Shown: positions 1,518 to 28,375 of the stretch, one piece after another
Layout: each line of letters begins with the position of its first letter
Numbering within the stretch: position 1 is the stretch's first letter
Assembly (NCBI GenBank): GCA_022763365.1
Contig: JALEGN010000017.1
Coordinates: 96 to 64,095, forward strand
Reading direction: 5' to 3'
Source of the DNA: Minisyncoccota bacterium
GTDB taxonomy: Bacteria; Patescibacteriota; Minisyncoccia; Phycocordibacterales; UBA1006
Length of the DNA: 64,000 bases
Made by a program: the position numbers and the translations under genes
The notes under the pieces: generated by a model
Told to the model about the DNA's origin: nothing
What the model saw: the letters and a program-made list of their open reading frames with translations, nothing else
Databases searched by the model: none

Positions 1518-1557
1518 CTTTTTTGAAAAAACTGATTATTTCAGTTTTTCTTTTACA

Positions 1558-1636
1558 AAAGTTCGAACATCATCCCAGTCTGCCAGCTAGCAAAAAGCCA
1601 CTCTAGAAATAGGGTGGTTTTTGGTATACTACAACT
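1558..1636 (+). repeat. Conserved intergenic module, copy A: 28-nt box GTTCGAACATCATCCCAGTCTGCCAGC, a hairpin (AACCACTCT-N6-AGGGTGGTT with flanking A/T runs), then TGGTATACT -10 and 6 nt to the ATG.
   Basis: Direct sequence comparison with the seven other copies. Confidence 0.85.
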
Positions 1637-2227
1637 ATGAAATTTCTAAAAAACAAAAGAGGATTTACTTTGATAGAATTACTTGTAGTTATTTCAATTA
1701 TTGGTGTTCTTTCTACTATTGTTTTAAGTTCTCTAGGTGAAAGTCGTGATAGAGCAAGATATGCAAAAGTTAAGGCGTCTTTAAGACAATTACAAACACA
1801 AGCTGAAATATATTCTTTAACTTATGGTGATTATTCTTCAGTGCAAAATAACTATGTTTGCCCAACATCAGCGTCATCAAGTCCAACAAATTTATTTCAA
1901 TCGGATGAAATATTTCAAATAATTACAGATATCGCAAATACCTTAAATATTTCCGATACAACCGAAACTGAAGAAATTTCTTGTTATACCAGCCCGAGCG
2001 GAAATGAGTATATATTTAGAGTTATGGCTAACGACTTACGTTCTTCAGAAGGTGATTTCGATTTTAGCGGAAACGTGTGGTTTACTCTTTGTGTTGATAT
2101 TTCTGGAGAAATTAAAAGGGGGCTTGGCGGCGGTGCTGATGAAATGCAGACAGGTTCAAGTGAAAATACAGAGTTTGGAGAAGTTACTCCTCCGTACCAT
2201 TGTTTTCCAGATGGTGCTGAAATTTAA
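1637..2227 (+). CDS. Type IV pilin-like protein with a prepilin N-terminal cleavage/methylation domain.
   Basis: N-terminus [26 protein letters not shown] (G-F-T-L-I-E class III signal) with a variable C-terminal domain. Confidence 0.8.
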
Positions 2228-2229
2228 TA

Positions 2230-2308
2230 AAAGTTCGAACATCATCCCAGTCTGCCAGCAGATAAAAAACCACTCTAGAAATAGGGTGGTTTTTGGTATA
2301 CTACATTT
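2230..2308 (+). repeat. Conserved intergenic module, copy B.
   Basis: Near-identical to copies A and G; the -10 is at 2297–2302 and the ATG at 2309. Confidence 0.85.
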
Positions 2309-2992
2309 ATGAAATTTAAATCTAAAGGATTCACACTTATTGAGCTTCTTGTTGTCGTTTCAATTATTGGAGTATTATCGGCAGTTATTCTTACTTCTTT
2401 ATCTAATGCGCGACAGAATGCAAAAGATGCAGCGTTGATACGTCAAGAACTATCAATATTTTCTGGAAATGGTAGTTCGGTTATTGCTAGTTATGATTTC
2501 AACAATTACGAAGAGGGGGTTTCACCAACTCAAATATCCTCAACCGGAGGTTTTGGCCAAGACTTAGCTATTGTAGGCAATCCAGAAATTCAAGAAGGTA
2601 TTGCGGGTAATGCGCTTTATTTTGATGGAAATGACAGTGTTACAGTTACGGGTGTTACAAATATAAGAGCGATATCAGCAATGTTTAAGGTGACAAGAAA
2701 TGATTTTTCACGTTACTATATTGATGCTCGTCCAGCACTTAGTTCTGGATATATCTATAGTGGAGTAGGATCAGCATGGGATAGATTATACATTAATGGT
2801 GAGCTTGTAAATTCATCAACAACAAGTACTTTTATACCTGAGAATCAGTGGTTTCATCTTATGGCAATAAGAGATACTCCATTTAGTGGACCTGTTGTTT
2901 TCATGAGCCGTTTTACTAATTCTAATTTTCATATAGGACATTTAGATAATGTAAGAATTTATGAAGAAGTTCCTACTGGATATGATTCTTAA
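2309..2992 (+). CDS. Type IV pilin-like N-terminus fused to a LamG/concanavalin-like (LamG_3-type) C-terminal domain.
   Basis: [24 protein letters not shown], followed by GNALYFDGNDSVTVTGV … NQWFHLMAIRD, which are typical LamG jelly-roll motifs. Confidence 0.65.
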   Translation: MKFKSKGFTLIELLVVVSIIGVLSAVILTSLSNARQNAKDAALIRQELSIFSGNGSSVIASYDFNNYEEGVSPTQISSTGGFGQDLAIVGNPEIQEGIAGNALYFDGNDSVTVTGVTNIRAISAMFKVTRNDFSRYYIDARPALSSGYIYSGVGSAWDRLYINGELVNSSTTSTFIPENQWFHLMAIRDTPFSGPVVFMSRFTNSNFHIGHLDNVRIYEEVPTGYDS

Positions 2993-3036
2993 ATATTTTA
3001 AGTATCATTCGTTAATGATCACAAGAGAGATTAAAT

Positions 3037-3114
3037 AAGTTCGAACATCATCCAGTCTGCCAGCAGATAAAAAACCACTCCAGAAATAGGATGGTTTTTT
3101 GATATACTAAAAGT
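3037..3114 (+). repeat. Conserved intergenic module, copy C, with a weakened hairpin.
   Basis: Box at 3039–3066; the -10 TATACT is at 3103–3108 and the ATG at 3115. Confidence 0.8.
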
Positions 3115-3702
3115 ATGAATTTTAAAAAAGGATTTACATTGATTGAATTACTCGTTGTTATTGCTGTAATCGGTATATTAGCTACTGTAATAATTGCTAG
3201 CTTAGGTTCAGCGAGAACTAAAGCAAAAGATTCTGCGGTCATGAATACTTTATCAAATTATCGAAATCAAGCCGAGTTAGATTATCCTGATGGAGATTAC
3301 TCAGGACTTTGCCTTTCGTTAGGATCTAGTGATTTTCAATCTTATGTTGAATCTCAAGGTGGTGAAGTTAGTTCTTGTGATGATGGGTTAGATAATTATA
3401 GAATAGTTGCAATATTACCTAGTGCTTTAGTAAAAAATAATTTTGTAGAAACAGCATATGCAATGAATGAAGATGGTTTTTGTATAAATTCACTAGGTAC
3501 AGCTGAAAAAGTAATGGTAGAAGATATTGATTCCTTAGTTGCACCTGCATGCAATACTAGTGAATCCACAGGTGCTACACCAAGTTATCAGCGAAGGTGT
3601 AATGATTATACCCCGGAGTGGACTGGTTGTTATGATACTGCAAATAGTGTTTATGTATCAGCTAGTTTTTGTGATGGGCTACCTAGTATTTCTTGTAGAT
3701 AG
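3115..3702 (+). CDS. Type IV pilin-like protein.
   Basis: [24 protein letters not shown] with a Cys-rich variable C-terminus. Confidence 0.8.
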   Translation: MNFKKGFTLIELLVVIAVIGILATVIIASLGSARTKAKDSAVMNTLSNYRNQAELDYPDGDYSGLCLSLGSSDFQSYVESQGGEVSSCDDGLDNYRIVAILPSALVKNNFVETAYAMNEDGFCINSLGTAEKVMVEDIDSLVAPACNTSESTGATPSYQRRCNDYTPEWTGCYDTANSVYVSASFCDGLPSISCR

Positions 3703-3777
3703 TTCGAACATCATCCCAAACCGCCAGCAGATAAAAAACCACTCTAGAAATAGCGTGGTTTTTGGTATACTAAATTT
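3700..3777 (+). repeat. Conserved intergenic module, copy D. It overlaps the TAG stop of the upstream pilin gene.
   Basis: gttcgaac at 3702–3709; the -10 is at 3766–3771 and the ATG at 3778. Confidence 0.8.
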
Positions 3778-4134
3778 ATGAAATGGTTATCATTCAAAAA
3801 AATAACTTTTGTATTTCTTGTCTTAACTTTGTTAAGTAATGTTTTTGCCACAAATGTACAAACATTTGATACCAGTGCAGAACAATGTGAATTAGAGAAT
3901 CTATATACAAACCCTTGTGCCATTGCTTATATTGGAGATGTTGCTGTTGAAATTGAACAAGATACCGATATCACAAGTATCCATATTGACATAGCAGCTA
4001 TTGATTTTGAATTCATATCTCTTATTCAGGAAAATATTACTCCACAAAAAACTGATTTTTCCCAGTACTACGCTACAGATCTAAGTCCACCTACATTTAT
4101 ACAACTCCCTCGCAGTCATATAGTAATTTCATAA
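3778..4134 (+). CDS. Small secreted hypothetical protein with a classical signal peptide. It is non-pilin cargo behind the same module.
   Basis: MKWLSFKKITFVFLVLTLLSNVFA signal peptide and no pilin motif. Confidence 0.5.
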   Translation: MKWLSFKKITFVFLVLTLLSNVFATNVQTFDTSAEQCELENLYTNPCAIAYIGDVAVEIEQDTDITSIHIDIAAIDFEFISLIQENITPQKTDFSQYYATDLSPPTFIQLPRSHIVIS

Positions 4135-4172
4135 TTTAATTATCCATTTTATTACTTAATTAAATTATTACT

Positions 4173-4790
4173 ATGAAAAAAAATATTATATATATTATCT
4201 CAGCAGTTATTAGCCTCTTTGTTTCAGTAACGGTTATTGGTTTGTATCACTTTATGCAACAACAAGACTCTCAATTGCAAACTCATTATTATCGTAGCGA
4301 AGTCGCAACACTAGAGTCACCGCATGGCATTAGAAAAGCTATACAACAACGAAAAGATGACTTTATTCTTGTTGATGTTCGCTCCGCACAGGAATATGAA
4401 CAAGAACATATTATTGGAGCCGTAAATGTGCCTGTGTATCGAGACCCTGACACTTCTGCCTATGATGAGGAAGAACGTATTATCATGGAATTTCGCGATG
4501 TGATCAATAAAAATCCAGACAAAAAAGTTATCATTTATTGTTACAGTACTTCATGTATGTCAGGTAGAAAAATTGGAAATATGCTCGCTGATAATGGAAT
4601 TTTTGTTAAAGAGCTTGGTATTGGTTGGAATGAATGGCGATATGATTGGAATATGTGGAACTACCCTCATGAGTGGGAAACAACAAATGTCGAAGACTAT
4701 ATCTACTCAGGTAAGGAACCTGGAGTATACACTAAGTTAGATGATATTGGTGAAGCTGGGTGCTCACTAAGTAAATCATTTGAATGCTAG
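4173..4790 (+). CDS. Membrane-anchored rhodanese-domain protein.
   Basis: N-terminal TM segment, rhodanese fold motifs (ILVDVRSAQEYEQEHIIGAVNVP) and an active-site Cys loop (CYSTSCMSGR). Confidence 0.6.
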   Translation: MKKNIIYIISAVISLFVSVTVIGLYHFMQQQDSQLQTHYYRSEVATLESPHGIRKAIQQRKDDFILVDVRSAQEYEQEHIIGAVNVPVYRDPDTSAYDEEERIIMEFRDVINKNPDKKVIIYCYSTSCMSGRKIGNMLADNGIFVKELGIGWNEWRYDWNMWNYPHEWETTNVEDYIYSGKEPGVYTKLDDIGEAGCSLSKSFEC

Positions 4791-5163
4791 TATGATTCTC
4801 TCAGATATTCAAAAAGAATTCATATTGAATGCTGAATCAAAAGCCCTAGGAACATACGGAGACAATATTCATGTTATCCCTGTATCAACAATTTTTATTA
4901 ATAATGAGCAAATTATTCTTTGTAATTATTTCATGAAAAATACTATTGATAATATTCTCCAGAATCCAAATGTAAGTTTGAGTTGTTGGTCGCAAACACA
5001 AGGGATTCAGATTAAAGGCATTGTTACATACCAAGAAACGGGAGATGTATTTTCTTGGATTCAGAATATTATTTCTCAAAAATATCCTCATAGAATTCTC
5101 AAGGGTGTTCTCGTTATTAATCCCAGTGACGTATATGATACCTCACTTCCACAATTATTATGA
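4780..5163 (+). CDS. PNPOx-like / FMN-binding split-barrel family protein.
   Basis: Overall pattern similar to the pyridoxamine 5'-phosphate oxidase-like family. Translationally coupled to its neighbours. Confidence 0.3.
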   Translation: MNASMILSDIQKEFILNAESKALGTYGDNIHVIPVSTIFINNEQIILCNYFMKNTIDNILQNPNVSLSCWSQTQGIQIKGIVTYQETGDVFSWIQNIISQKYPHRILKGVLVINPSDVYDTSLPQLL

Positions 5164-5624
5164 AAAAATATATTATCATCTCTCTACTTTTTGGGTTTGC
5201 TCTTGGGTATGTCACATTTATCACTCTTGATGCTTATTCAAATAAAAATCATACGGTAGCAATACAACATAGTCCGCATGCTATGCACCTACACGAACCT
5301 GTACCTGTGTTATCTGAAAATATCCCATCAATTTCAGCAAATATTTTTCCAGACCATAAGTCTGGATACAATATCAATCTCGTTACTGAGCATTTTGAAT
5401 TTACTCCAGAATTAGCAAATATGGAAAACGTTCAAAATCAAGGTCATGCACATATTTATGTGAATAATGAAAAGGTGGCACGAGTTTATGGCTCATGGTA
5501 TCACCTTGATAATCATTATTTAGTTGATGGTTCAAATACAATCCGTATCAGTCTTAATGCTAATGATCATTCAGTTTGGTCAATTAATAATAATCCTATC
5601 GAAGTGAGCTATTTGCTCGATTAA
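5160..5624 (+). CDS. Hypothetical exported protein.
   Basis: N-terminal hydrophobic segment; the start overlaps the stop of the upstream gene (ATGA). Confidence 0.4.
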   Translation: MKKYIIISLLFGFALGYVTFITLDAYSNKNHTVAIQHSPHAMHLHEPVPVLSENIPSISANIFPDHKSGYNINLVTEHFEFTPELANMENVQNQGHAHIYVNNEKVARVYGSWYHLDNHYLVDGSNTIRISLNANDHSVWSINNNPIEVSYLLD

Positions 5625-5628
5625 ATCT

Positions 5629-6621
5629 ATGAAAAAATTATTTATTTTACTTATTGGAGTCTTTTCAATACCGCATACTACACTAGCTCATGTACGTTAC
5701 ATAGCTACTGAAGCAGAGCAAGCCGCATTATCTCAAATCGATTTTGCCTTGTTGTTATCACCACTGAAAGAACCTAAATATATTGTTATGATTATTGCGA
5801 CTTTAATATTGGTTGCTATTGTGTATTGGTTTTGTGACCATAATAAATATATTCATAGGTGGACTGAACACATGGCACATGTAGGGGAATCATATAAACA
5901 ATTTATTCCGTGGATTACACGATTATCATTAGGAATTATTTTAATTGGCGGAGCAACAAATGAGTTCCTCATTTCTCCGGTCCTTGAAACACCTTTCGTT
6001 TGGATGAATATTTTACAATTAATTATTGGGTTCTTCCTGATGGCAGGTTTTATGACTGGAATTTCAGCAATAGTTGCTTTAATTTTATTTATATATGCGC
6101 TGACTCAAGATATGTATTTGATTGGTTCATTCGATATTTTAGGATTAATTCTCTCACTTTTTGCTCTTGATAGTAGGCGTCCTGGGGTAGATGATATCGT
6201 TGGTATCCCTGATTATTTACACATTAAAAAACTACGGAAATACCTTCCTACGATATTACGTATGGGGATTGGTATCGGAATGGCATATCTAGCAATTGTT
6301 GAGAAAATACTTACTCCAGAGCTTGCAGCTATGGTTGCTGAAACAACAGGTCTCGTTGATGTTATTCCTGTCTCCGCAATGATGTGGGCTTTCTCAGCAG
6401 GAGTTATTGAGTTTGTTGTCGGTATTATGTTGTTTATTGGTTTTAGGACACGGTTAGCAGCTGTCGCAGCCCTCATTATTTTATCAATGTCATTCTTCTA
6501 TTTTGGTGAAGATGTAACCTCACACGTGACACTCTTTGGAACTTTATCTGCTGTATTTATTCTTGGTGTTGGTAAATTGGGTGTTGATAGTCCTCATCCA
6601 AAAATTCAAGATTCTCTATAA
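5629..6621 (+). CDS. Integral membrane protein of unknown function.
   Basis: Signal peptide plus multiple hydrophobic helices. Confidence 0.4.
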   Translation: MKKLFILLIGVFSIPHTTLAHVRYIATEAEQAALSQIDFALLLSPLKEPKYIVMIIATLILVAIVYWFCDHNKYIHRWTEHMAHVGESYKQFIPWITRLSLGIILIGGATNEFLISPVLETPFVWMNILQLIIGFFLMAGFMTGISAIVALILFIYALTQDMYLIGSFDILGLILSLFALDSRRPGVDDIVGIPDYLHIKKLRKYLPTILRMGIGIGMAYLAIVEKILTPELAAMVAETTGLVDVIPVSAMMWAFSAGVIEFVVGIMLFIGFRTRLAAVAALIILSMSFFYFGEDVTSHVTLFGTLSAVFILGVGKLGVDSPHPKIQDSL

Positions 6622-6719
6622 AAATTTGAACATCATCCTAGTCTCCCAGCAATGATAAAATCACCTTATTCTTTAAGGTGATTTTTGGTTCGAGAATCCT
6701 AGTTTGGTATAATTACCTT
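6622..6719 (+). repeat. Conserved intergenic module, copy E. This variant has the box TTTGAACATCATCCTAGTCTCCCAGCA and a hairpin rebuilt as AATCACCTT-N6-AAGGTGATT. It also has an 18-nt insertion and a TATAAT -10.
   Basis: Compensatory changes preserve a 9-bp stem; the -10 is at 6708–6713 and the ATG at 6720. Confidence 0.75.
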
Positions 6720-7013
6720 ATGAAAGAATACATAAAATACCTTAAAGATAATCCAAAAGGCTATTGGTTTAAAAGAAAACTATATGGCTGGGGTTGGACA
6801 CCTGCTACATGGCAAGGGTGGCTGGTAACTCTCATGTACATTCTTTTAGTACTCTTTTTCGCACTCACGATTAGTGAGGATTCTGCAGCACGCGAGATAG
6901 TATTTACTTTTATTCTACCAGTAGTGCTACTTACTATAACCTTCTTTAGAATTGCTTATTCTAAAGGAGAAAAACCAAAGTGGATGTGGGGAATACCTAA
7001 GAATGGTGAGTAA
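6720..7013 (+). CDS. Small membrane protein. The track ORF at 6678 uses an alternative upstream start, whereas the ATG at 6720 is the one the promoter module predicts.
   Basis: MKEYIKYLKDNPKGYWF… with two hydrophobic helices. The 6-nt spacing from the -10 matches the other cassettes. Confidence 0.5.
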   Translation: MKEYIKYLKDNPKGYWFKRKLYGWGWTPATWQGWLVTLMYILLVLFFALTISEDSAAREIVFTFILPVVLLTITFFRIAYSKGEKPKWMWGIPKNGE

Positions 7014-7025
7014 AATAAGTTCGAA

Positions 7026-7095
7026 CATTATCTCAGTCTGCCAGCATCTAAAAAAATCACCTTAGAAATAGGGTGGTTTTTGGTATACTAACTCT
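7026..7095 (+). repeat. Conserved intergenic module, copy F.
   Basis: gttcgaac at 7029–7036; the -10 is at 7084–7089 and the ATG at 7096. Confidence 0.8.
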
Positions 7096-7644
7096 ATGAA
7101 ATTTCTTAAAAAAGAAAAAGGATTTACACTCATTGAATTACTTGTAGTAGTTTCAATTATCGGTGTTCTTTCTACTATAGTTTTAAGTTCGTTGGGTGAA
7201 GCTAGGAAAAAGAGTAGATATTCTTCTTTTAAACTTGAACTCCGTCAATTACAAAATGACTTACTCATTTTTGGTACTGAATCAACTAATATATCTGGTT
7301 CAAACGAAGATGAATGTCCGTCGAACTTTAATAGTAATCCTCAAACAATTTTTGAGAGAGAAGAAGTTTTCAATAAAGTTTCTTTGATCGCAGATAAATC
7401 AGGAATTATTAATATGCAGGACGAATCTGAAATGTCATGTTTTGTAGATGCAGCCGGTGTTGCCGCTGGAATAGTTTTTTATGCTAATGATTTTGCAGAA
7501 TATGAAGTAAGCCCTCAGCCTGGAGAAGAAATGTTTTATTGTATTGATATGAATGGAAATATAAATAAAGGATGGGGTAGTTCAGCTGATGATTTTTTTG
7601 ATACTTTTACATATGAATGTGCTGAAGATGACTATGTTGCTTAG
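7096..7644 (+). CDS. Type IV pilin-like protein.
   Basis: [26 protein letters not shown]. The N-terminal coding DNA is ~88% identical to the gene at 1637. Confidence 0.8.
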   Translation: MKFLKKEKGFTLIELLVVVSIIGVLSTIVLSSLGEARKKSRYSSFKLELRQLQNDLLIFGTESTNISGSNEDECPSNFNSNPQTIFEREEVFNKVSLIADKSGIINMQDESEMSCFVDAAGVAAGIVFYANDFAEYEVSPQPGEEMFYCIDMNGNINKGWGSSADDFFDTFTYECAEDDYVA

Positions 7645-7649
7645 AAATA

Positions 7650-7728
7650 AAAGTTCGAACATCATCCCAGTCTGCCAGCATCTAAAAAACTACTCTAGAA
7701 ATAGGGTGCTTTTTGGTATACTACATTA
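7650..7728 (+). repeat. Conserved intergenic module, copy G.
   Basis: gttcgaac at 7653–7660; the -10 is at 7717–7722 and the ATG at 7729. Confidence 0.85.
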
Positions 7729-8241
7729 ATGAGAATAAAAACTAAAAAAGGATTTACGCTAATCGAATTACTTGTGGTTGTTGCTATTATAGGAGTGTTA
7801 GCAAGTATTGTTTTGAGTTCTTTAAATGAAGCAAGAACTAAAGCACGAGATGCTCGAAGAAAATCAGATATAGATCAAATACGAAAAGCAATGATATCAT
7901 TTGCTATTGATAATAACCTTCCTTTTAATTTACAAAATAGCGGTTGTGGTGCAGGTTCAGGTGGTGATGCTATAGGTTGGTACGATGCTGATTACGGAGC
8001 ATCTGGAGGTTCTATTCAAGACTGTCTTGTTAATGGAGGATATATTAGTGAAGAGGTTAATGACCCACTTCGTAATGTTTCAACAGTTGGAACTGATTCT
8101 AATAGATATATGATGTATCCATGCAATGGTAATTTAATTTTGATGGCTAATCTTAAATCTGAACCTAGCCCAGCTCCCGATGCTATCTGTGGCGGATACG
8201 ACACTGCATATGGAATGGATTATTTTGTTGAAATAAGATAA
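7729..8241 (+). CDS. Type IV pilin-like protein.
   Basis: [26 protein letters not shown]. Confidence 0.8.
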   Translation: MRIKTKKGFTLIELLVVVAIIGVLASIVLSSLNEARTKARDARRKSDIDQIRKAMISFAIDNNLPFNLQNSGCGAGSGGDAIGWYDADYGASGGSIQDCLVNGGYISEEVNDPLRNVSTVGTDSNRYMMYPCNGNLILMANLKSEPSPAPDAICGGYDTAYGMDYFVEIR

Positions 8242-8271
8242 TTAAGAGCACTATTTCGGCTTATAATTCAG

Positions 8272-8316
8272 AAAAAACCACTCTAGGAATAGGGTGGTTT
8301 TTGATATACTTTGTAC
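8272..8316 (+). repeat. Partial module, copy H: hairpin plus TGATATACT -10 only; the 28-nt box is absent.
   Basis: aaaaaaccactctaggaatagggtggttttt, then TATACT at 8305–8310 and the ATG at 8317. Confidence 0.7.
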
Positions 8317-8844
8317 ATGAAAAAAATAATTCATAAATATCTACCAGAATTCGTGTATGGTTCTGTTGATGGTGTTGTCACAACCGTTGCAATCATTACC
8401 GGTGCTGTTGGGGCAGGGCTATCTTCATCAGTAATATTTGTTCTTGGGATTGCAAACGTTTTAGCTGATGCGTGGTCTATGGGATCAAGTGAGTACCTTT
8501 CCTCAATTTCTGAAAATCAACTAGAGAATAATTCAGTCAACGGAGAAGACGGTAATCAGAAAAAGCCTTTATCAAAAGGGGTTGCTACCTTCGTTTCTTT
8601 CGTACTTGTCGGACTGTTGCCAATTTTGCCATTTTTATTCAGTATCTTTTTTGATGAACTTCAGGGAATTGATATTTGGCTTTCAATGCTGTGTGCTTTA
8701 TGTGCGTTTATCTTGATTGGTTATATTGGGGCTCAGATTGCAAGAGTCTCTCACATTAAAAATATTCTTAGGACGGTATTCGTAGGAACTATAGCTGCTG
8801 GAATTTCGTTTTTGGTAGGATACCTATTGCGAGGAATAGCCTAA
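8317..8844 (+). CDS. VIT1/CCC1-family (vacuolar iron transporter-like) membrane protein.
   Basis: YGSVDGVVTTVAIITGAVGAG and LADAWSMGSSEYLS motifs. The track start at 8311 is a TTG; the ATG at 8317 fits the 6-nt promoter spacing. Confidence 0.6.
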   Translation: MKKIIHKYLPEFVYGSVDGVVTTVAIITGAVGAGLSSSVIFVLGIANVLADAWSMGSSEYLSSISENQLENNSVNGEDGNQKKPLSKGVATFVSFVLVGLLPILPFLFSIFFDELQGIDIWLSMLCALCAFILIGYIGAQIARVSHIKNILRTVFVGTIAAGISFLVGYLLRGIA

Positions 8845-12023: not shown

Positions 12024-12037
12024 TGAACGAACGTTCA
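12024..12037. promoter_or_regulatory. SOS box of the Cheo/Gram-positive type, GAAC-N4-GTTC (tGAACgaacGTTCa).
   Basis: It lies about 16 nt upstream of the lexA-like start, between a TTGACT-like hexamer and a TATGAT -10. Confidence 0.6.
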
Positions 12038-12052: not shown

Positions 12053-12619
12053 ATGAATCATAGTGTAAAAAAAATATATTCCTTTTTAAAAAATAAATCA
12101 CGTATGCCAAGTTATACCGAGATTGCATCTCTCTATGGATTTAAATCGAAAAATGCGGCATATAATCTGGTTAAAAAATTTATCCATAAAGGAGAACTCT
12201 CTAAAGATTCAGCTGGTAAAATCATTCCACATAACGATTATCAAAAAATTGCCCTCCTTGGTTCTATTTCAGCTGGATTTCCAGGAGCAGGTGAAGAGGT
12301 GATGCATGAGGCAATGTCATTGGATGACTGGGTCATTACTGACCCTGATGCGAGTTACCTTCTTCAGGTGGAAGGGGATTCCATGATTGATGCTGGTATT
12401 CATAAGGGAGATTATGTTGTTGCTGAAATGACAACTAATTTTAAACCAGGAATGATTGTTGTTGCTGAGATTGACGGAGAGTGGACACTAAAATATTTGA
12501 GAGTAAAAAATAACAGGCAATATCTTGAGGCAGCGAATGACAGCTATCCTGATATGCATCCTAAAAAAGAACTTGTTCTCCATGCTAGGGTAACGGGTGT
12601 CGTCCGCAAGTATGACTAA
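12053..12619 (+). CDS. lexA: LexA-like repressor with an S24 peptidase domain and an N-terminal wHTH.
   Basis: Ala-Gly cleavage site (ISAGFP), GDSM Ser nucleophile and a Lys in EWTLKYL. Confidence 0.75.
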   Translation: MNHSVKKIYSFLKNKSRMPSYTEIASLYGFKSKNAAYNLVKKFIHKGELSKDSAGKIIPHNDYQKIALLGSISAGFPGAGEEVMHEAMSLDDWVITDPDASYLLQVEGDSMIDAGIHKGDYVVAEMTTNFKPGMIVVAEIDGEWTLKYLRVKNNRQYLEAANDSYPDMHPKKELVLHARVTGVVRKYD

Positions 12620-13877
12620 TATTTATATTCATATTGATGCGGATGCTTTTTTTGCATCGGTTGAACAATGTTTACATAGAGAGTTGCGTGGTAAACCTAT
12701 TGTGACCGGTCGTGATGGTTCAGTTGCGGTTGCTATGAGTTATGAGGCAAAGGCACTTGGTGTAGAGCGAGCGATGCCAATTCACCTAATTAGAGAAGAA
12801 TTTCCTATGGTTCAGATGGTAGCTTCTGATTATTTCATGTATCGAATTTTTTCAGCACGAATGCAGCGAATTATTAAACAATATATACCGGAAATTACTC
12901 AGAGTAGTATTGATGAATGTCACGGAGATATTTCAGATGATGTTCAAGATTTTCAGGAAGCAAAGGAACTTGCTCTTAATATTAAACAAGAGCTTGAGTT
13001 AAAATTAGGATGTACCTTTTCAATCGGTATATCCTCATCACCTTTGTTAGCAAAAATGGCTTCAGGCATACATAAACCATCAGGATTGACTATTATTGAT
13101 ACTCAAAATAATAGAGATTATGTAGGCTATCCAATTAAAAAAGTAAATGGACTAGGAACACAATTGTGTAAACGATTATCAGGTTTTGGTATTGTTTATA
13201 TTCGAGATTTTATTCGTGAATATCCTCGCATCAGAAAGAATTTTTCAGTGGTGACTGACGATATTTTTTATCAACTACAGGGATATCCACCATTACGGAA
13301 TAGTAAAAAGGAAGATCAAAAAAGTATGAATCGTGCTCGATCATTTAAGGTCTCGTTTAGCCGAGATGAGGTATATGGACAGTTAGTATTAAATCTTGAA
13401 TCATTATTAAAAAAAATGAGGCGCCAGAACATGCTTGCTAAAACAGTACACGTTTCCTTGGGTGATATTGAGCGTAAACGTGTATCTTCTAAAATACGTT
13501 TAGATACAGCAAGTCGTGACCCTGATAACATCGGTTTTATTGCACAAACATTATTTAATAAAATATATATTAATAATAAAGGATATCGTTATGTTTCAGT
13601 AACACTCTCTGGTCTTATTAAAAAGGATTATCTGCAAATTGATTTGTTTGGAGAGAGTATCAATAGTGAAAAAAGAGAAGGTATGTATTCAGCTATTGAT
13701 ATCCTTGATGCAAAATTTGGAAAACCAGTTATTCGTTTGGCTAGTACTTTAACAACCCCCCAATCTCTGAGTTCACATATTAACAAAGAAGAGAATATTA
13801 TTACCTATCAAAACCCGCTCCTAAAAGGAGAAACATTTTATAGGCGTGTTCGCTATCCTTACCTTGGGATGATTTAA
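12597..13877 (+). CDS. Y-family translesion DNA polymerase (DinB/UmuC-like).
   Basis: IHIDADAFFASVE N-terminal motif. It overlaps the lexA-like gene by 23 nt. Confidence 0.8.
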   Translation: MSSASMTNIYIHIDADAFFASVEQCLHRELRGKPIVTGRDGSVAVAMSYEAKALGVERAMPIHLIREEFPMVQMVASDYFMYRIFSARMQRIIKQYIPEITQSSIDECHGDISDDVQDFQEAKELALNIKQELELKLGCTFSIGISSSPLLAKMASGIHKPSGLTIIDTQNNRDYVGYPIKKVNGLGTQLCKRLSGFGIVYIRDFIREYPRIRKNFSVVTDDIFYQLQGYPPLRNSKKEDQKSMNRARSFKVSFSRDEVYGQLVLNLESLLKKMRRQNMLAKTVHVSLGDIERKRVSSKIRLDTASRDPDNIGFIAQTLFNKIYINNKGYRYVSVTLSGLIKKDYLQIDLFGESINSEKREGMYSAIDILDAKFGKPVIRLASTLTTPQSLSSHINKEENIITYQNPLLKGETFYRRVRYPYLGMI

Positions 13878-17019: not shown

Positions 17020-17361
17020 ATGAAGCCATCAGAAGTTACTAATAAACCATGGGGACATTTTAGGCAGTTTACCTTGAACCAGCAAACCACTATTAAAACC
17101 TTGAATGTCAATGCAGGAGAAATTCTCTCCCTTCAAACTCATACAACCCGAGAAGAATATTGGTATGTCCTTGAAGGTCACCCTCAAATTACCCTCGGTG
17201 ACGAAATTTTTGATGCGCAGCCAGGTCAAGAAATTTTTGTTACCCAAGGACAACAACACAGGATTGCAGCACCTACTGACGCTGTGGTTATATTAGAAAT
17301 TGCATATGGACATTTTGATGAAGACGATATCGTGCGCTTAGAAGATAAATATAATCGCTAA
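17020..17361 (+). CDS. Cupin-domain protein resembling the C-terminal cupin of type II mannose-6-phosphate isomerase.
   Basis: Cupin His/Glu pattern (LQTHTTREEYWYVLEG … HRIAAPTD … EIAYGHFDEDDIVRLEDKY). Confidence 0.5.
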   Translation: MKPSEVTNKPWGHFRQFTLNQQTTIKTLNVNAGEILSLQTHTTREEYWYVLEGHPQITLGDEIFDAQPGQEIFVTQGQQHRIAAPTDAVVILEIAYGHFDEDDIVRLEDKYNR

Positions 17362-17390: not shown

Positions 17391-19349
17391 ATGTTTACTA
17401 ACATCTTTTCACAATTTATATCGTGGATACAAAAACTCTTTAGGGTACAACCAGAAGGGTTGTATTTAAACCGCGATATTATTGGAACGGCACGTTTTGA
17501 AAACCAAGTCTATTTTTTCATGCGTCAAGGAAAAGATGTTTTTTTAATGAGTGATACACACCATCGTCATTATCACAGAAAAATTAAGTTCTCCAAAGAC
17601 GTATCTCGTTATACTAATTCGATGAGAGATCTGGATGCTTGTATATTACCAAATGGAGAATATGGATTGGTATGTACTATTACTTTTGGTTCTGGATATA
17701 GAACGCTCTACTTAACATCTGTTGATGGGGTGCATTTTGCTGCATGGTCAATGGTGAGGAGTCCTAATGGTTCACCAACAAAAATCATTGTGCATACTGA
17801 TGGTAATATTGCATTACTAACCTCTATTGATGGAGAAATTTGTTATCGAAAATTAGACCTCGAACACCGGGTTATTGAATATCATGATACCCATCTTAAA
17901 CCTCGTCATGATTCCTTTGACCATAGTCCACTTGCGGTTGTGGCTACTTTTACTATTAATGATGGTGTATTTGTGCTCTACGATACCTCATATCAATTAG
18001 ATGGTTGTGCAACGCATCGTTTTGGAGCAGCACTACTATCTCATGATAATCTTTCGCATACTCATTGGCGTGCTTTTTTCGACGAAGTGCCATTTTGGGA
18101 TTATTTTGCTGACGTAAAAAACCCGCTCCAGCGGCATAATATGTTTACTTTAGGTGGCTACCTTAACAAGGATATGATTAAGGTCTACTTCTACGATACT
18201 CAATCAAAAGATATTTATACTCTTGCTTTACATGAACCCTATTCACGACGTGATCCACATCCTGAAAAAGCTCTTCTTAAAAAATATGTAAACAATCCAA
18301 TTCTTAGACCTAACCCACATCACAGTTGGGAAAACCATACAACCTTTAACCCAACTGCTATTGTAATAGATAATATAACGCATCTTTTGTATCGCGCTGA
18401 AGGATCAGCTGGACTCTCAGTTATTGGATACGGAAAAAGTTATAATGGCGTTACTTTTGATAGATTAGCTGACCCTATTTACGTTCCACGTATGGATTTT
18501 GAAGGAGTGAACGTCGATCCGCGTATTACCAAACTCTTCTCGCGAGGAAGTTATAAGTCTGGATACAATCATTATGAATATCACTCACAACACTCATATG
18601 ATTGGCATGGCGTTGAGGATCCACGTATTACTGAAATAGAAGGGAGACTTTATATTATTTATGCGGCCTATAATGGCTATCAGCAAGCCAGACCAGCAAT
18701 TACTTCAATTACTAAAGAAGATTTTCTTAGTCAAAAATGGAACTGGTCGGTACCACAGCCTATGACTGATGTACCACAATATCATGGACAGGGAAATAAA
18801 AACGTTGTCTTACATCCTGAAAAAGTAAACGGAAAATATATGCTGTATCACCGGATGTGGCCACATATCCGAATTGACTATGTTGATGATTTAGAATTTG
18901 GGCCTAAGAAAAAATATCTTAAAGAACTTGACCGTATCGAAGCCCGCGGAGACTCATGGGATAGTCATAAAATTGCTGTTGCTGCCGCTCCAATAGCTAT
19001 TGATGAAGGATGGTTGTTAATTTACCAAGGAGCAGGATCAAATGATCGTCGGTATAAGGTAGGTGCAATGATTTTAGATAAAGATAATCCGTCTAAAGTG
19101 CTATACCGAAGTAATTATCCAATCATGATACCAAGTCAGTGGTATGAAAATGAACATAAGTTTGGGGTCGCCTATCCTTGCGGAGCAGTTGTACGTGACG
19201 GAATACTCAATGTTTATTATGGTGGATCAGATAAATATGTTTGCTTGGCTCAGGCGCCACTAGAGGAGTTTATAGAAAAACTCAAACAAGATCCTTACAT
19301 CAAACCAGAACTTATTAAGACTAAAAATATTAATGACCTATGTATATAA
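17391..19349 (+). CDS. GH130-like beta-propeller protein (mannoside phosphorylase family). The C-terminal domain is canonical and the N-terminal half is divergent.
   Basis: NNPILRPN, FNPTAIV, EDPRIT, GWLLIYQGAG and YYGGSD motifs. Confidence 0.6.
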   Translation: MFTNIFSQFISWIQKLFRVQPEGLYLNRDIIGTARFENQVYFFMRQGKDVFLMSDTHHRHYHRKIKFSKDVSRYTNSMRDLDACILPNGEYGLVCTITFGSGYRTLYLTSVDGVHFAAWSMVRSPNGSPTKIIVHTDGNIALLTSIDGEICYRKLDLEHRVIEYHDTHLKPRHDSFDHSPLAVVATFTINDGVFVLYDTSYQLDGCATHRFGAALLSHDNLSHTHWRAFFDEVPFWDYFADVKNPLQRHNMFTLGGYLNKDMIKVYFYDTQSKDIYTLALHEPYSRRDPHPEKALLKKYVNNPILRPNPHHSWENHTTFNPTAIVIDNITHLLYRAEGSAGLSVIGYGKSYNGVTFDRLADPIYVPRMDFEGVNVDPRITKLFSRGSYKSGYNHYEYHSQHSYDWHGVEDPRITEIEGRLYIIYAAYNGYQQARPAITSITKEDFLSQKWNWSVPQPMTDVPQYHGQGNKNVVLHPEKVNGKYMLYHRMWPHIRIDYVDDLEFGPKKKYLKELDRIEARGDSWDSHKIAVAAAPIAIDEGWLLIYQGAGSNDRRYKVGAMILDKDNPSKVLYRSNYPIMIPSQWYENEHKFGVAYPCGAVVRDGILNVYYGGSDKYVCLAQAPLEEFIEKLKQDPYIKPELIKTKNINDLCI

Positions 19350-24677: not shown

Positions 24678-26027
24678 TTGTTATACTTAATATATATGAC
24701 AACCAAACAACAAGTAAATATTTTTTGGTTTAGACGCGACCTGCGCCTTGATGATAATCATGGTTTATATAAAGCACTTAAAGATGGGCTTCCAGTGATC
24801 CCAGTCTTTATTTTTGATAAAGATATTTTAGATGAACTGCCTGAGGATGACCACCGCGTTAGCTTTATCTACGATAGACTCCAAGAGATGAGAAATGAAC
24901 TTCAAGAAAAATGGGATAGCTCTATAGATTTTAGGTATGGTACACCTGAAAAAATCTGGAAGGAACTCCTTAGTGACTATGATGTAAAATCAGTATTTAC
25001 CAATCACGATTATGAGCCTTATGCAAAAAAACGTGATAAGGAAATTAAAGAACTTCTTGAAAAAGAAGATATTGAATTTTATACTTTTAAAGACCAGGTG
25101 ATTTTTGAAAAAGATGAAGTAGTAAAAGACGATGGTGGCCCTTATGTTGTTTATACACCGTACAAAAATAAATGGCGTGAGAAATTTAATTCTGAACGTG
25201 ATCTTAAAACCTATGACGTAGGTCGTTATGGTCAGAATTTTTACCAAAATACGCGACTACCACAGATTAGCCTTTCTGATATGGGATTTACTCGATCAGA
25301 TATTAAGGCGCCATCATATACTCTTACCGATAATCTTATGGGTGATTACGCTGACACGCGTGATTTTCCTGCCGAAGAAGGTACCTCAAAACTAAGCACT
25401 TACTTACGTTTTGGGCTAGTCAGTGTTCGAAAAATTATGAAACAAGCTTATGAAGGTCCAGGTTATACTTTTATGAACGAGCTTGTTTGGCGTGAATTTT
25501 TCATGCAAATCCTTTGGCATTTTCCGTATACGAAAGACCAAGCTTTTAGAGAAAAATACGATGCTATAGCCTGGCGAAACAATGAGGAAGAGTTTGAAAA
25601 ATGGAAAGAAGGGAAGACGGGTTATCCAATTGTGGATGCAGGCATGCGCGAACTTAACGAAACAGGATATATGCACAATCGCGTTCGTATGATTGTAGCG
25701 AGTTTCCTTACCAAACACCTTCTTATTGACTGGCGTTGGGGAGAACGCTATTTTGCAGAAAAACTCTTCGATTATGAAATGGCATCAAACGTAGGGAACT
25801 GGCAATGGACTGCAGGTTCTGGTGTTGATGCGCAGCCATATTTTAGAGTTTTCAATCCACATACTCAGTTTGAGAAGTTCGATAAAAATCAAGAATACGT
25901 CCGCAAGTGGGTTCCGGAGTATTTCGGCGTTGGCTATGTTTCTGAGATGGTAGATCATAAAGAGGCACGCGAGCGTGCCATCGAAACCTATAAACATTCA
26001 CTCAATGAATATGAAAAAAACAATTAA
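24678..26027 (+). CDS. phr: Deoxyribodipyrimidine photolyase (class I CPD photolyase / cryptochrome family).
   Basis: FWFRRDLRLDDN N-terminal motif and FAD-binding WQWTAGSGVDAQPYFRVFNP. The true start is probably the internal MTTKQQ near 24696. Confidence 0.8.
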   Translation: MLYLIYMTTKQQVNIFWFRRDLRLDDNHGLYKALKDGLPVIPVFIFDKDILDELPEDDHRVSFIYDRLQEMRNELQEKWDSSIDFRYGTPEKIWKELLSDYDVKSVFTNHDYEPYAKKRDKEIKELLEKEDIEFYTFKDQVIFEKDEVVKDDGGPYVVYTPYKNKWREKFNSERDLKTYDVGRYGQNFYQNTRLPQISLSDMGFTRSDIKAPSYTLTDNLMGDYADTRDFPAEEGTSKLSTYLRFGLVSVRKIMKQAYEGPGYTFMNELVWREFFMQILWHFPYTKDQAFREKYDAIAWRNNEEEFEKWKEGKTGYPIVDAGMRELNETGYMHNRVRMIVASFLTKHLLIDWRWGERYFAEKLFDYEMASNVGNWQWTAGSGVDAQPYFRVFNPHTQFEKFDKNQEYVRKWVPEYFGVGYVSEMVDHKEARERAIETYKHSLNEYEKNN

Positions 26028-26625: not shown

Positions 26626-26632
26626 AAACCTC

Positions 26633-26797: not shown

Positions 26798-26801
26798 GAT
26801 T

Positions 26802-28274: not shown

Positions 28275-28327
28275 ATCCTTATTATACGACTTTTTAACTT
28301 TTTTATTACTTTCAAGTATTACATTTA

Positions 28328-28367: not shown

Positions 28368-28375
28368 TACTTAGT

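Follow-up and report, generated by a model that had tools for sequence, protein, structure and literature searches.

What is the short conserved box that punctuates a run of type IV pilin-like genes in a Minisyncoccota bacterium, and what does it do there? The window, a 64,000-nt stretch of contig JALEGN010000017.1 (assembly GCA_022763365.1), had been given a sequence-only reading that described eight copies of a ~78-nt intergenic module, each with a 28-nt box, a terminator and an extended −10 promoter. The array is real, consisting of seven box-bearing modules (A–G) and an eighth, boxless module (H), all within 1557–8316 (Table 1). The box (GTTCGAACATCATCCCAGTCTGCCAGC) counts 27 nt as typed. 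A window scan allowing ≤3 mismatches places it at 1561, 2233, 3702, 7019 and 7653 (0.00 expected from shuffles), and two further copies lie at 3039, with a 1-nt deletion, and at 6624, with 4 mismatches. The 33-nt hairpin-plus-−10 segment occurs six times at ≤3 mismatches with 0 expected, and eight of the ten TGNTATAMT-N6-ATG matches in the window (0.17 expected) fall inside the array. Module H (8272–8316) is hairpin and promoter only, its box position (8241–8271) holding a decayed remnant at most.

Table 1. Features of the array and its flanks, in window coordinates.
Feature	Position	Strand	Composition	Evidence
Terminator hairpin of upstream large gene (84–1517), then TTTTCTTTTACAAAA, then box A	1523..1550	+		Read from sequence
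Module A	1557..1636	+	AAAA + box 1561–1587; A-run/hairpin/T-run 1592–1622; extended −10 TGGTATACT 1622–1630; ATG 1637	
Pilin-like gene A	1637..2227	+	196 aa; prepilin motif KRG|FTLIE	Pfam N_methyl E=1.7e-9
Module B	2229..2308	+	box 2233–2259; hairpin 2264–2294; TGGTATACT 2294–2302; ATG 2309	
Pilin-like gene B	2309..2992	+	227 aa	N_methyl E=1.8e-8
Module C	3035..3114	+	box 3039–3064 (1-nt deletion); hairpin 3069–3100; TGATATACT 3100–3108; ATG 3115	
Pilin-like gene C	3115..3702	+	195 aa	N_methyl E=1.8e-8
Module D	3702..3777	+	box 3702–3728 (variant CCCAAACCG); hairpin 3733–3763; TGGTATACT 3763–3771; ATG 3778	
118-aa gene	3778..4134	+	signal-peptide-like N-terminus; non-pilin cargo	No Pfam match
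Four-gene unit	4173..6621	+	rhodanese, PNPOx-like, 154-aa unknown, DoxX-like membrane protein; no internal boxes	Pfam
Module E (type II)	6622..6719	+	box 6624–6650 (ATTTGAACATCATCCTAGTCTCCCAGC); different hairpin 6655–6686; ATG 6720	
97-aa membrane protein	6720..7013	+	non-pilin cargo	No Pfam match
Module F	7015..7095	+	box 7019–7045 (2 mismatches); hairpin 7051–7081; TGGTATACT 7081–7089; ATG 7096	
Pilin-like gene F	7096..7644	+	182 aa	N_methyl E=4.5e-9
Module G	7649..7728	+	box 7653–7679; hairpin 7684–7714; TGGTATACT 7714–7722; ATG 7729	
Pilin-like gene G	7729..8241	+	170 aa	N_methyl E=5.9e-9
Module H	8272..8316	+	hairpin 8272–8302; TGATATACT 8302–8310; ATG 8317; no box; distal end of array	
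VIT1-family gene	8317..8844	+		Pfam VIT1 E=3e-33
LexA-like S24 peptidase gene + Y-family polymerase gene	12053..13877	+		Pfam, synteny

The N_methyl prepilin motif is present in all five genes that had been called pilin-like (starts at 1637, 2309, 3115, 7096 and 7729). As had been described, their N-termini are conserved while their C-termini differ, and the intergenic DNA is the more conserved part: modules are 82–100% identical, whereas pilin N-terminal coding DNA is 65–71% identical and the C-termini are unalignable. The claim that each module starts at or overlaps the upstream stop codon holds at D and E (the G of the TAG stop of pilin-like gene C is the first base of box D) but not at A and C, which begin ~40–46 nt past it.

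Two parts of the module are as described. The A-run/hairpin/T-run would act as a bidirectional intrinsic terminator insulating each cassette. Its hairpins have folding energies of −12.5 to −23.4 kcal/mol, and a hairpin with a T-rich tail follows 40 of 62 box contexts. The stem sequence varies freely between relatives, different genomes carrying different stems beside the box. The separate terminator hairpin at 1523..1550 precedes a box, and the same succession of hairpin, T-rich TTTTCTTTTAYAAAA and box is seen again in L013, L020, L027, L023 and L034/35. TGgTATACT-N6-ATG has the form of an extended −10 promoter from which a leaderless mRNA would begin, as is usual for genes of this genome. A Shine-Dalgarno motif precedes 0 of 55 genes and TANNNT lies at −15 to −10 in 32 of them, so that the module promoter fits leaderless mRNAs. 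The 6-nt spacing to the ATG is therefore real, but reflects a genome-wide architecture of gene starts rather than a feature of the module. Neither terminator nor promoter explains the box, as had been noted; the box instead matches the 3′ end of a tRNA gene.

This origin was missed in the sequence-only reading. By alignment, the box is a derivative of the 3′ end of tRNA-Gln(UUG), with 21 of 23 identities and one 5-nt gap against the last 24 nt of this gene from L035, L026 and L015; these belong to a comparison set of related Patescibacteria contigs (the L-numbered loci) and a relative MAG, Co_bin.90. It spans the T-loop through the gene end, has five extra bases (ATCAT) after the T-loop and lacks the 5′ T-stem. 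The tRNA-Arg and tRNA-Phe of the window match it only at GTTCGA. Module E offers a still better match to the tRNA end, both in its box and in a second, truncated copy (box2, GGTTCGAGAATCCTAGTTTGG, 6687–6707) fused to the −10 TATAAT at 6708–6713. The 3′ half (CCTAGTCTCCCAGCA) is identical to a partial tRNA-Gln copy at L035:6427–6441.

Genuine tRNA-Gln genes accompany the boxes in relatives. A scan of 36 related or syntenic loci found tRNA genes of one kind only, tRNA-Gln, in seven loci, always upstream of boxes and co-oriented with them. In L035, at the position orthologous to the window array, tRNA-Gln(UUG) is followed by a 115-nt insert, a partial tRNA end, pilin, a degenerate box, pilin, VIT1 and lexA. 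In L011, the end of a real tRNA-Gln(CUG) gene (TTCGAGTCCCTGTCTGGCAGCA) is duplicated and flanks a ~130-nt insert on both sides, the first 118 nt of which also occur behind a box 3 kb away. L027 and L035, which come from one metagenome, have the same pilin promoter, placed after tRNA-Gln(CUG) in the first and after a partial tRNA(UUG) end in the second; they are 97% identical over 370 nt, a match that begins within the tRNA end. Boxes and genuine tRNA-Gln ends are thus interchangeable as points of insertion. All partial tRNA copies begin at or within the T-loop, reportedly the footprint of integrases that cross over there. The window holds no tRNA-Gln gene and the contig is only 309 nt longer, so the anchor is deduced from the relatives.

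We consider it probable, with moderate confidence, that the box of this three-part module acts at the DNA level, as an att-like junction in a cassette island anchored at tRNA-Gln. Boxes would mark the boundaries of small cassettes in a variable island that, in relatives, starts at tRNA-Gln and stops short of a lexA-like/Y-family polymerase pair. Both boxes and genuine tRNA-Gln ends would serve as junctions, equivalent to each other, for the insertion, replacement or rearrangement of cassettes of 0.2–3 kb. Joining would be catalyzed by a site-specific, probably tyrosine, integrase crossing over in tRNA T-loops, and homologous recombination between the conserved modules would add homogenisation within a genome. 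Since tRNA-Gln-end copies at cassette boundaries are a footprint of DNA insertion and swapping, the locus has the look of a small island for shuffling genes and not of a pilin switch.

Comparison of relatives places breakpoints at the box edges, although several contigs end at boxes and some of the different continuations may therefore be within-genome repeats rather than strain differences: L006 and L015 are 100% identical for 6,813 nt until one base beyond a box and unrelated after it, L010 and L025 are 98% identical starting 7 nt ahead of a box with unrelated DNA upstream, and the homology of L032 to the window begins exactly at box D. Cassette content around the boxes also differs between relatives. 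This tendency of contigs to break at the element, together with its short, repeated and hairpin-containing nature, is what a generic REP- or MITE-like terminator-promoter repeat scattered through the genome would give. Such a repeat is nevertheless largely refuted and very improbable: the window has seven box copies within 8 kb and none in its remaining 56 kb, exact-pattern matches in Co_bin.90 are confined to a single contig, all copies within an array share one orientation, and the element has neither terminal inverted repeats nor a target-site duplication. A box that is not scattered and cassettes that vary between strains both favour the recombination site and cassette exchange first proposed for the array.

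The recombinase itself presents a difficulty. No tyrosine or serine recombinase was found by Pfam in the ~55 window ORFs or by a motif scan of ~250 kb of window and related loci, so the enzyme is one that we infer; its gene would lie in another part of the genome or on a mobile element. Of mobile-element genes, an IS3-type rve transposase in L021 was the sole example, and IMG/VR viral contigs yielded no copy of the box, which leaves no known attP-bearing element. Its 5-nt insertion would shift binding-site spacing relative to a real tRNA, which makes a single enzyme for both not obvious. The homogenisation of modules and pilin N-termini within a genome also speaks against an att-like junction, as homologous recombination alone would produce it.

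The box might be a passive relic without dedicated recognition. In that case an ancestral segment comprising tRNA-Gln 3′ end, terminator, promoter and pilin would have undergone tandem duplication, and the array would now evolve only by unequal crossing-over, gene conversion and homologous recombination between modules after DNA uptake. The lack of a recombinase anywhere near the arrays suits this idea, as does the homogenised flavour of box, hairpin and promoter peculiar to each genome. In two pilin cassettes, one in L027 and one in L035, the middle is divergent but the flanks are shared (97% on the 5′ side, 90% on the 3′ side), and DprA and pilus genes in these organisms fit competence. A neutral relic should, however, decay like its neighbours, whereas the box is identical at 27 of 27 positions between the window and Co_bin.90, where coding DNA is 70–78% identical, and the hairpin lying 5 nt from it has been exchanged repeatedly. 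Conservation falls sharply beyond positions −4 to +28, although it looks inflated inside the box because copies were collected by searching for the box itself. The cargo flanked by boxes is also unrelated and not duplicated, and it includes inverted genes and a 188-nt mini-cassette; partial tRNA copies that are independent and differently flanked all start at the T-loop; and real tRNA-Gln genes bear insert-plus-direct-repeat footprints. We therefore regard the relic as rather unlikely.

Alternatively, the box could act at the RNA or regulatory level, as a conserved 3′-UTR element governing stability, processing or localisation of surface-protein mRNAs, or as an operator for the downstream promoter. 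Most cassettes place it between stop codon and terminator, where it should be transcribed, and its conservation lies in sequence rather than structure. If the inferred reading direction holds, a spacer of a Dokdonia Cas13b-type (RNA-targeting) array is complementary to the sense strand of the box. Box orientation is constant, however, where the flanking cassette genes lie on the opposite strand (L018, L021) and in divergent intergenic regions with no co-directional gene preceding (L004, L005), which also disfavours the regulator-binding role once suggested. The distance from box to promoter ranges from about 37 to >200 nt across loci, the cargo has no common function, and module H drives VIT1 without a box. 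The box has no Rfam match, no conserved fold involving it was found, and the breakpoints at its edges would go unexplained. A function of this kind seems improbable.

The cargo is varied. Pilins are the commonest, but a pilin-specific system was rejected, as only ~15 of 62 box contexts lead into a pilin start, so that roughly one cassette in four carries a pilin. Other contexts lead to Ddl, a CsoR-like gene, a cupin, methyltransferases, tiny membrane peptides and many orphans. Phase variation of pilins, also suggested earlier, finds no invertible segments, silent copies or simple repeats here. In the window, the 118-aa gene has a 68% identical ortholog in L032, which is without the two middle genes of the four-gene unit, and the 97-aa membrane protein has a 68%-identical ortholog behind a type I module in L025. 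The C-terminus of pilin-like gene B shows a weak ConA-like lectin match (Laminin_G_3 E=8e-4, under the curated cut-off), and the N-terminal part of gene G is 76% identical to a pilin of L001. Pilin followed by VIT1 forms a conserved distal island edge in L034–L038, and in every relative examined the lexA-like/Y-family polymerase pair borders the variable island on the right as a conserved flank.

Among known systems, Prochlorococcus tycheposon islands are tRNA-anchored genomic islands built by successive site-specific integrations (bioRxiv 10.1101/2020.12.28.424599). As here, they are seeded beside a tRNA gene and partial tRNA 3′-end direct repeats flank their inserts (bioRxiv 10.1101/2020.12.28.424599). 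Older insertions are likewise pushed inward by newer ones, degenerate partial tRNAs are scattered through the island, and the cargo is adaptive and strain-variable. The Prochlorococcus units are multi-kb elements, whereas those here are small single genes (0.2–3 kb), each with its own terminator and leaderless promoter, and the arrays examined and their surroundings yielded no integrase or replication module. The repeat is moreover a derived tRNA form, with a 5-nt insertion, conserved across species.

Integrons and CALINs (attC clusters lacking an integrase) carry mostly single-ORF, often orphan cassettes with a site of fixed polarity between them. There as here, ORFs can flip while sites do not, and arrays without an adjacent integrase can occur. 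The attC sites, imperfect palindromes of 57–141 bp with R″/R′ cores (GTTRRRY), are recognised by their structure, whereas the box is 27 nt, non-palindromic, sequence-conserved and tRNA-derived, and the cassettes here are not promoterless. The type IVa pilin island of Pseudomonas aeruginosa is said to adjoin tRNA-Thr and to hold strain-variable pilin alleles with accessory genes. It resembles the present locus in abutting a tRNA gene and in its conserved pilin N-termini and divergent C-termini. It reportedly has a single pilA allele in each strain and lacks an array of repeated junction sites, unlike the several complete tandem pilins here, each bounded by tRNA-derived boxes and mixed with unrelated cargo. 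In Neisseria pilE/pilS antigenic variation, which involves Sma/Cla and RS repeats, silent, promoterless and 5′-truncated pilS copies donate to a single expression locus. Tandem pilin-related sequences with short conserved recombination-promoting repeats between them are common to both, but all five pilin genes here are complete, each with promoter and prepilin leader, and their variable parts are not mutually homologous.

As a separate observation, one spacer of a Dokdonia CRISPR array beside a Cas13b-like gene matches the box at 29 of 30 positions.

The array of pilin-like genes is organised as the sequence-only reading had described it, and its box copies, hairpins, extended −10 elements and five pilin genes were all found again. 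The 27-nt box (GTTCGAACATCATCCCAGTCTGCCAGC) occurs five times at three or fewer mismatches, against a shuffle expectation of 0.00, and two further copies are more degenerate; the 64-kb window has none in its remaining 56 kb, the box being confined to 1.5–7.7 kb. Six copies of the hairpin-plus-−10 segment are present in the window at three or fewer mismatches, one of them boxless. The eight modules first counted do align, with hairpin folding energies of −12.5 to −23.4 kcal/mol, but because the last of them has no box, the boxes number seven. The intergenic modules are indeed more alike (82–100%) than the N-terminal coding DNA of the pilins (65–71%), and the remaining pilin coding DNA is unalignable. 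The hallmarks of type IV pilins and pseudopilins are a hydrophobic helix and an N-terminal class III signal containing G|FTLIE (the Pfam N_methyl domain), and this domain was found above cut-off in five module-led genes (E 1.7e-9 to 1.8e-8). All five are complete, each with a promoter and leader, and the DNA that they have in common comprises only the module and the N-terminal ~80 nt. The other units of the array are a 118-aa gene, an operon of rhodanese, PNPOx, unknown and DoxX genes, a 97-aa membrane protein and a VIT1 gene. The C-terminal region of pilin B weakly matches a ConA-like lectin domain (Laminin_G_3, E=8e-4, under cut-off), and this protein may be an adhesin-type pilin.

The sequence-only reading overlooked that the box derives from the end of a tRNA gene. 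The 3′ end of tRNA-Gln(UUG) reads …GGTTCGAAyCCTAGTCTGGCAGCA and the box reads (AAAA)GTTCGAAC-ATCAT-CCcAGTCTGcCAGCA, so that 21 of 23 positions are identical and five extra bases (ATCAT), near-invariant among boxes, follow the T-loop. The tRNA-Arg and tRNA-Phe of the window share only GTTCGA with the box. The 3′ end of box E (CCTAGTCTCCCAGCA) exactly matches a partial tRNA copy in the related contig L035, and module E contains a further, truncated copy (GGTTCGAGAATCCTAGTTTGG) that runs straight into its −10, a type II layout found again in L009, L016, L021 and L022. The only tRNA genes in related loci are tRNA-Gln, present in seven (L005, L011, L015, L021, L026, L027 and L035) and in every case upstream of the boxes and co-oriented with them. 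An integrative island abuts the 3′ end of a tRNA gene, an arrangement seen in these seven loci. The window has no tRNA-Gln; its contig ends ~300 nt beyond the window start, leaving the head of the island out of view. Inserted segments of a tRNA-anchored island are flanked by direct repeats equal or similar to the 3′ part of the tRNA, and such repeats are seen as the box itself, a duplication in L011 and the partial copy in L035.

Comparison of related contigs places strain breakpoints at the edges of boxes. L006 and L015 match at 100% for 6,813 nt, up to one base past a box, and are unrelated beyond it; L010 and L025 are 98% identical starting 7 nt before a box, and are unrelated upstream. Homology between L032 and the window starts at box D. 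L034 and L035 share 99.9% identity over 14 kb and differ in their left flanks; the point of divergence lies ~20 nt past a degenerate box in the one contig and past a partial tRNA end in its counterpart. In L011, a 22-nt tRNA-Gln(CUG) end is exactly duplicated on both sides of a ~130-nt insert, the first 118 nt of which are also found after a box 3 kb away. The tRNA-Gln(UUG) of L035 is followed by a 115-nt insert and then by a partial copy of the tRNA end. L027 and L035, both from one metagenome, share a pilin promoter and N-terminus (97% over 370 nt) that stands behind tRNA-Gln(CUG) in the former and behind a partial tRNA(UUG) end in the latter, the homology beginning inside the tRNA end. Judged from these alignments, real tRNA-Gln ends and boxes are interchangeable. 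Partial tRNA copies all begin at or within the T-loop, and integrases that cross over in the T-loop of tRNA-gene integration sites reportedly leave copies starting there.

Breakpoints, interchangeable tRNA ends and varied cargo bear out the earlier suggestion of a recombination site that supports cassette exchange; the phase variation offered beside it is not supported. The other option raised, a regulator-binding site, fares poorly. Several cassettes in L018 and L021 have ORFs (102–216 aa) on the opposite strand with box orientation unchanged, and in L004 and L005 boxes lie within divergent intergenic regions, arrangements that fit poorly with a role in the 3′ UTR or as an operator. Nor is the system specific to pilins, which stand behind only ~15 of 62 boxes. 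Elsewhere the cargo includes Ddl, a CsoR-like gene, a cupin, methyltransferases and many orphans, as well as a 33-aa membrane peptide in a 188-nt cassette.

A degenerate box pattern was scanned over one genome per species (185,579 species genomes) and separately over metagenomes. The species scan returned five matches on one 100-kb contig of the related MAG Co_bin.90 (L001, L004, L005) and further matches in L006, a contig labelled Saccharibacteria, in a Dokdonia genome (L002) and in L003; the metagenome scan returned 27 contigs. The cyanobacterial L003 and three metagenome contigs of higher GC (L007, L014 and L033; 46–61%) lack the box context and are regarded as chance pattern matches. Relative to the window, Co_bin.90 has coding DNA of 70–78% identity and modules of 86–97% identity, but four of its boxes match at 27/27. 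Related contigs hold arrays of up to five boxes in 2.2 kb. Across 60 gapless contexts, box positions are conserved at at least 87% except 18, 19 and 21, within-box conservation being partly by construction because copies were gathered by a box search, a circumstance that affects neither the sharp edges nor which positions vary. Beyond the box, conservation in the same contexts takes in AAAA on the 5′ side and a single A at the 3′ edge, and is at background level further out.

The remainder of the module consists of expression signals. The window has 10 occurrences of TGNTATAMT-N6-ATG against 0.17 expected, eight of them in the array and two outside it. A leaderless-mRNA promoter has a −10 hexamer ending ~6–7 nt before the start codon and lacks a Shine-Dalgarno sequence, and all eight modules have this architecture. 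None of the 55 gene starts of the window shows a Shine-Dalgarno-like motif (GGAG, GAGG or AGGA), a TANNNT hexamer lies at −15 to −10 in 32 of the 55, and most have a −10-like hexamer 5–9 nt ahead of the ATG; translation in the source organism appears to be largely leaderless. Given the first two of these counts, the exact 6-nt spacing to the ATG, previously listed as a feature of the module, is the ordinary, apparently leaderless, gene start of this organism. The A-run/hairpin/T-run is predicted to be a bidirectional terminator-like element. A hairpin with a T-rich tail follows within ~60 nt of the box in 40 of 62 distinct contexts from the window and its relatives, with stems of quite different sequence, which points to selection on structure rather than sequence.

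Several known classes of element were considered and rejected. Integrons have an intI integrase, attI and a Pc promoter heading the array, and attC sites that are 57–141-bp imperfect inverted repeats with RYYYAAC … GTTRRRY cores. No such head was found in integrase searches of the window ORFs, 31 related loci and the gene tables of L034–L041; the 27-nt box has no dyad symmetry beyond GTTCGAAC, its GTTCGAA is unlike GTTRRRY, and the adjoining hairpin is a sequence-variable, T-tailed terminator. REP and MITE repeats occur in many genome-wide copies, in both orientations and in unrelated contexts. The search for such scattering, which would have made the box a generic REP-like terminator, found the box confined in the window, on one contig in Co_bin.90, and in a single orientation within arrays. 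A dif site spans 28 bp, with two inverted 11-bp arms and a 6-bp centre, at the replication terminus; the box lacks inverted arms and GC skew is positive throughout the window, without a switch, which disfavours a dif/Xer site (IMEX, pdif-type). Diversity-generating retroelements pair a reverse transcriptase with template and variable repeats at the 3′ end of the target gene, and neither an RT domain (Pfam, window ORFs) nor a TR/VR pair in the pilin 3′ regions was found. Pilin variation by pilE/pilS gene conversion, as in Neisseria, draws on silent truncated copies sharing variable-region homology with one expressed locus; here there are no silent copies. A DNA-uptake sequence was rejected on the confinement of the box to the island, and a σ54 or ECF-type promoter on a spacing misfit seen by inspection. 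No Rfam family matched the module in gathering and E-value searches of the window and loci, which returned only tRNAs and one LOOT RNA in L006. Pairing of AGUCUGCCA with UGGUAUACU, which would place the box in a structured RNA, appears in some MFE folds only, is unconserved and is unsupported by covariation.

The array lies upstream of a conserved gene pair encoding a LexA-like S24 peptidase and a Y-family polymerase, and the stretch ahead of this pair is different in every relative compared. About 5.4 kb of the window, from box E onward, is absent from L032. On these comparisons the array region is a strain-variable island, headed in L035 by tRNA-Gln(UUG). A Cheo-box-type SOS operator motif (GAAC-N4-GTTC) stands just upstream of the LexA-like gene and also occurs in L032; together the two genes look like a self-regulated SOS mutagenesis cassette flanking the island.

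Positions of boxes, flanking features and side observations in the window and in related or matching contigs (L numbers)
Feature	Contig	Position	Strand	Remark
Box copies, ≤3 mismatches	window	1561, 2233, 3702, 7019, 7653
Box copy	window	3039		one base deleted
Box copy	window	6624		four mismatches
Hairpin-plus-−10 segment, boxless	window	8278		module H
Second truncated copy, GGTTCGAGAATCCTAGTTTGG	window	6687–6707		module E
Pilin B	window	2309–2992
SOS operator motif, GAACGAACGTTC	window	12025–12036
Small ORF	window	17020–17361		beside GH130 genes
Tandem ~650-aa GH130 genes	window	17391–21286		mannoside phosphorylase; beside PMM-like gene
Photolyase-family and carotenoid genes	window	24678–36057
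Asp/Glu-rich repeat genes	window	58127–60500
Stretch before lexA/polymerase pair	L035			tRNA-Gln, two pilins, VIT1, S30AE
Stretch before lexA/polymerase pair	L037			GDSL lipase, pilin, VIT1, malic enzyme, PMM, cupin, two GH130 genes
Stretch before lexA/polymerase pair	L039			pilin and three orphans, boxes present
Stretch before lexA/polymerase pair	L040			single pilin
~130-nt element, GTTGTGACCCCGACCGAGGTCACAATATAAGCTATATTTTACAACA…GGTTCGATTCCTAGAAAGG	L001	2738–2870
~130-nt element	L028	11210–11336	minus
~130-nt element	L023	4050–4180
~130-nt element	L039	2008–2140
118-nt element, two copies	L011	4540–4662 and 1450–1591	minus
Unit TTGTGCTAGCACG…TGTTATAAT	L035	6303–6416
Unit TTGTGCTAGCACG…TGTTATAAT	L020			downstream of box
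Unit TTGTGCTAGCACG…TGTTATAAT	L021	1323		downstream of box
LOOT RNA (RF03000, 67 bits)	L006	4671–4792		between tRNA-Gln(UUG) and first box
IS3-family transposase (rve, E=1e-24)	L021	4076–4837	minus	between tRNA-Gln(UUG) and box array
CRISPR array	L002	3110–3475		Dokdonia sp., NZ_CANLOB010000018.1
Spacer S1, AGCTCGAACATCATCCCAAACTGCCAGCAA	L002	3146–3175		trailer end
Cas13b-like protein P0121, 1,075 aa	L002	3530–6757	minus	adjoins CRISPR array

The simplest account is that cassettes would have been inserted or exchanged repeatedly and site-specifically at a tRNA-Gln-type attachment site, while homologous recombination between modules would homogenise them within a genome. Tycheposon islands of Prochlorococcus, which are tRNA-anchored and contain scattered partial tRNAs, arise by the same building process (bioRxiv 10.1101/2020.12.28.424599). 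A tRNA-anchored cassette island is of a known kind; what is unusual is the miniature self-expressing cassettes, the derived conserved junction and the lack of an integrase found nearby. Phage_integrase, Resolvase and Recombinase domains (Pfam) are absent from the ~55 window ORFs, the tyrosine- and serine-recombinase motifs HxLRH and YxRVSTxxQ (regular expressions) from ORFs of at least 120 aa in the window and 31 related loci, and recombinase families from the L034–L041 gene tables. Apart from the IS3-family transposase of L021, no transposase or recombinase turned up in the related loci covered by Pfam, motif scan or gene table. An integrase within the element or next to the tRNA gene, as integrative islands have, was not seen in these loci, and neither the box patterns nor the tRNA-Gln(UUG) end retrieved an attP-bearing phage or element from IMG/VR. 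The enzyme step is postulated, since no recombinase was found, the box and tRNA-Gln end were not found in IMG/VR and the account does not explain the 5-nt insertion or its near-invariance. A serious rival explanation dispenses with the enzyme and treats the box as a relic, with homologous recombination acting on it; the lack of a recombinase in the window ORFs and related loci examined favours this model.

Patescibacteria (CPR) combine very small genomes with a life attached to other microbes, and rely mainly on type IV pili for attachment and DNA uptake. To our knowledge, few mobile-element mechanisms have been described in these bacteria, and the diversification of surface structures in reduced genomes is poorly understood. 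A compact cassette island anchored at tRNA-Gln, with a conserved junction sequence, would make the box a searchable marker of the flexible genome of this lineage. It would also supply a mechanism, open to test, by which the pilin repertoire turns over, and would be a candidate for a minimal system of gene capture whose cassettes are self-expressing.

In Dokdonia the match to the box falls within a CRISPR array whose repeats are 36 nt long and whose spacers are mostly 30 nt. Spacer S1 matches the box variant of L015 at 29 of 30 positions, ATCAT insertion included, and among 185,579 species genomes the only known source of its sequence is the box-bearing CPR lineage. The adjoining P0121 has no match in Pfam, NCBIfam, PADLOC or PDB sequences. 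Its homologs (P0122–P0137; L042–L045), of ~1,075–1,100 aa, come from Dokdonia, Tenacibaculum and metagenomes and are annotated as hypothetical proteins in the two named genera. Two RxxxxH motifs are invariant in the family, the best ten Foldseek matches of the P0121 AlphaFold model (pLDDT 75) are all Cas13b-family (E 1e-11 to 4e-4, nine at ≤6e-8), and the genes lie in defence islands beside CBASS (SMODS/Cap15), TIR and caspase-like genes. The family is probably a divergent, uncatalogued branch of Cas13b, to which the array draws attention. The array is on the same strand as the P0121 gene, its degenerate terminal repeat is distal to that gene and its repeat is taken to resemble Cas13b repeats; with the array direction inferred from these features, the crRNA would pair with box-sense RNA.

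The spacer may reflect a host–epibiont link, or box-bearing nucleic acid entering flavobacteria, and there is recent precedent for hosts carrying spacers directed at Patescibacteria epibionts (bioRxiv 10.64898/2026.09.16.751625). As one old, trailer-end spacer, S1 is a lead rather than a result, albeit a rare and directly testable one to the host of an uncultured marine CPR lineage. A wider reading, tentative and rather unlikely in its entirety, is that a clade of aquatic Patescibacteria has its own integron-like gene-capture platform, in which the 27-nt mimic of the tRNA-Gln 3′ end, conserved in sequence, is the universal junction for an integrase encoded elsewhere. Each cassette would be an expression unit complete with terminator, leaderless promoter and one gene, the repertoire of pilins and surface proteins for host attachment would be continually reshuffled, and cassettes or their transcripts would reach other bacteria, a step proposed because Dokdonia, a marine flavobacterium, has a Cas13b-type spacer against the box. 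If this gene-capture reading is true, the box would act as a mobility signal while also being targeted by host immunity, and Flavobacteriaceae would be pointed to as hosts of the lineage.

Small units recur next to boxes and tRNA-Gln genes. A ~130-nt element, always directly after a box, has a T-arm-like fragment at its end, no Rfam match and no compensatory pairs (0; no covariation). The identical 118-nt copies in L011 stand right after the genuine tRNA-Gln(CUG) and right after a box; the element contains an antisense copy of the tRNA end (CAGACAGGGACTCGAA), is followed by a sense copy and may be a miniature integrative element or remnant. A third unit after tRNA-Gln or a box is followed by a short transcript-sized stretch with a terminator at its end, and could be a small RNA gene.

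Further along the window, the tandem GH130 genes are downstream of lexA; in L037 and L038 the corresponding block is inside the variable island upstream of lexA, and the L037 counterpart of the small ORF beside it is a cupin. Two adjoining genes contain long, highly acidic Asp/Glu-rich repeats with a 21-nt periodicity (repeat families D1, D2, D8 and D12), and one of them also has PG_binding_1 and DUF4398 domains. Two photolyase-family genes accompany carotenoid pathway genes for a polyprenyl synthase, a phytoene synthase, a UbiA-type prenyltransferase, a Caroten_synth protein and a phytoene-desaturase-like oxidase, an unusual metabolic investment for a reduced CPR genome that fits a sunlit surface-water habitat.
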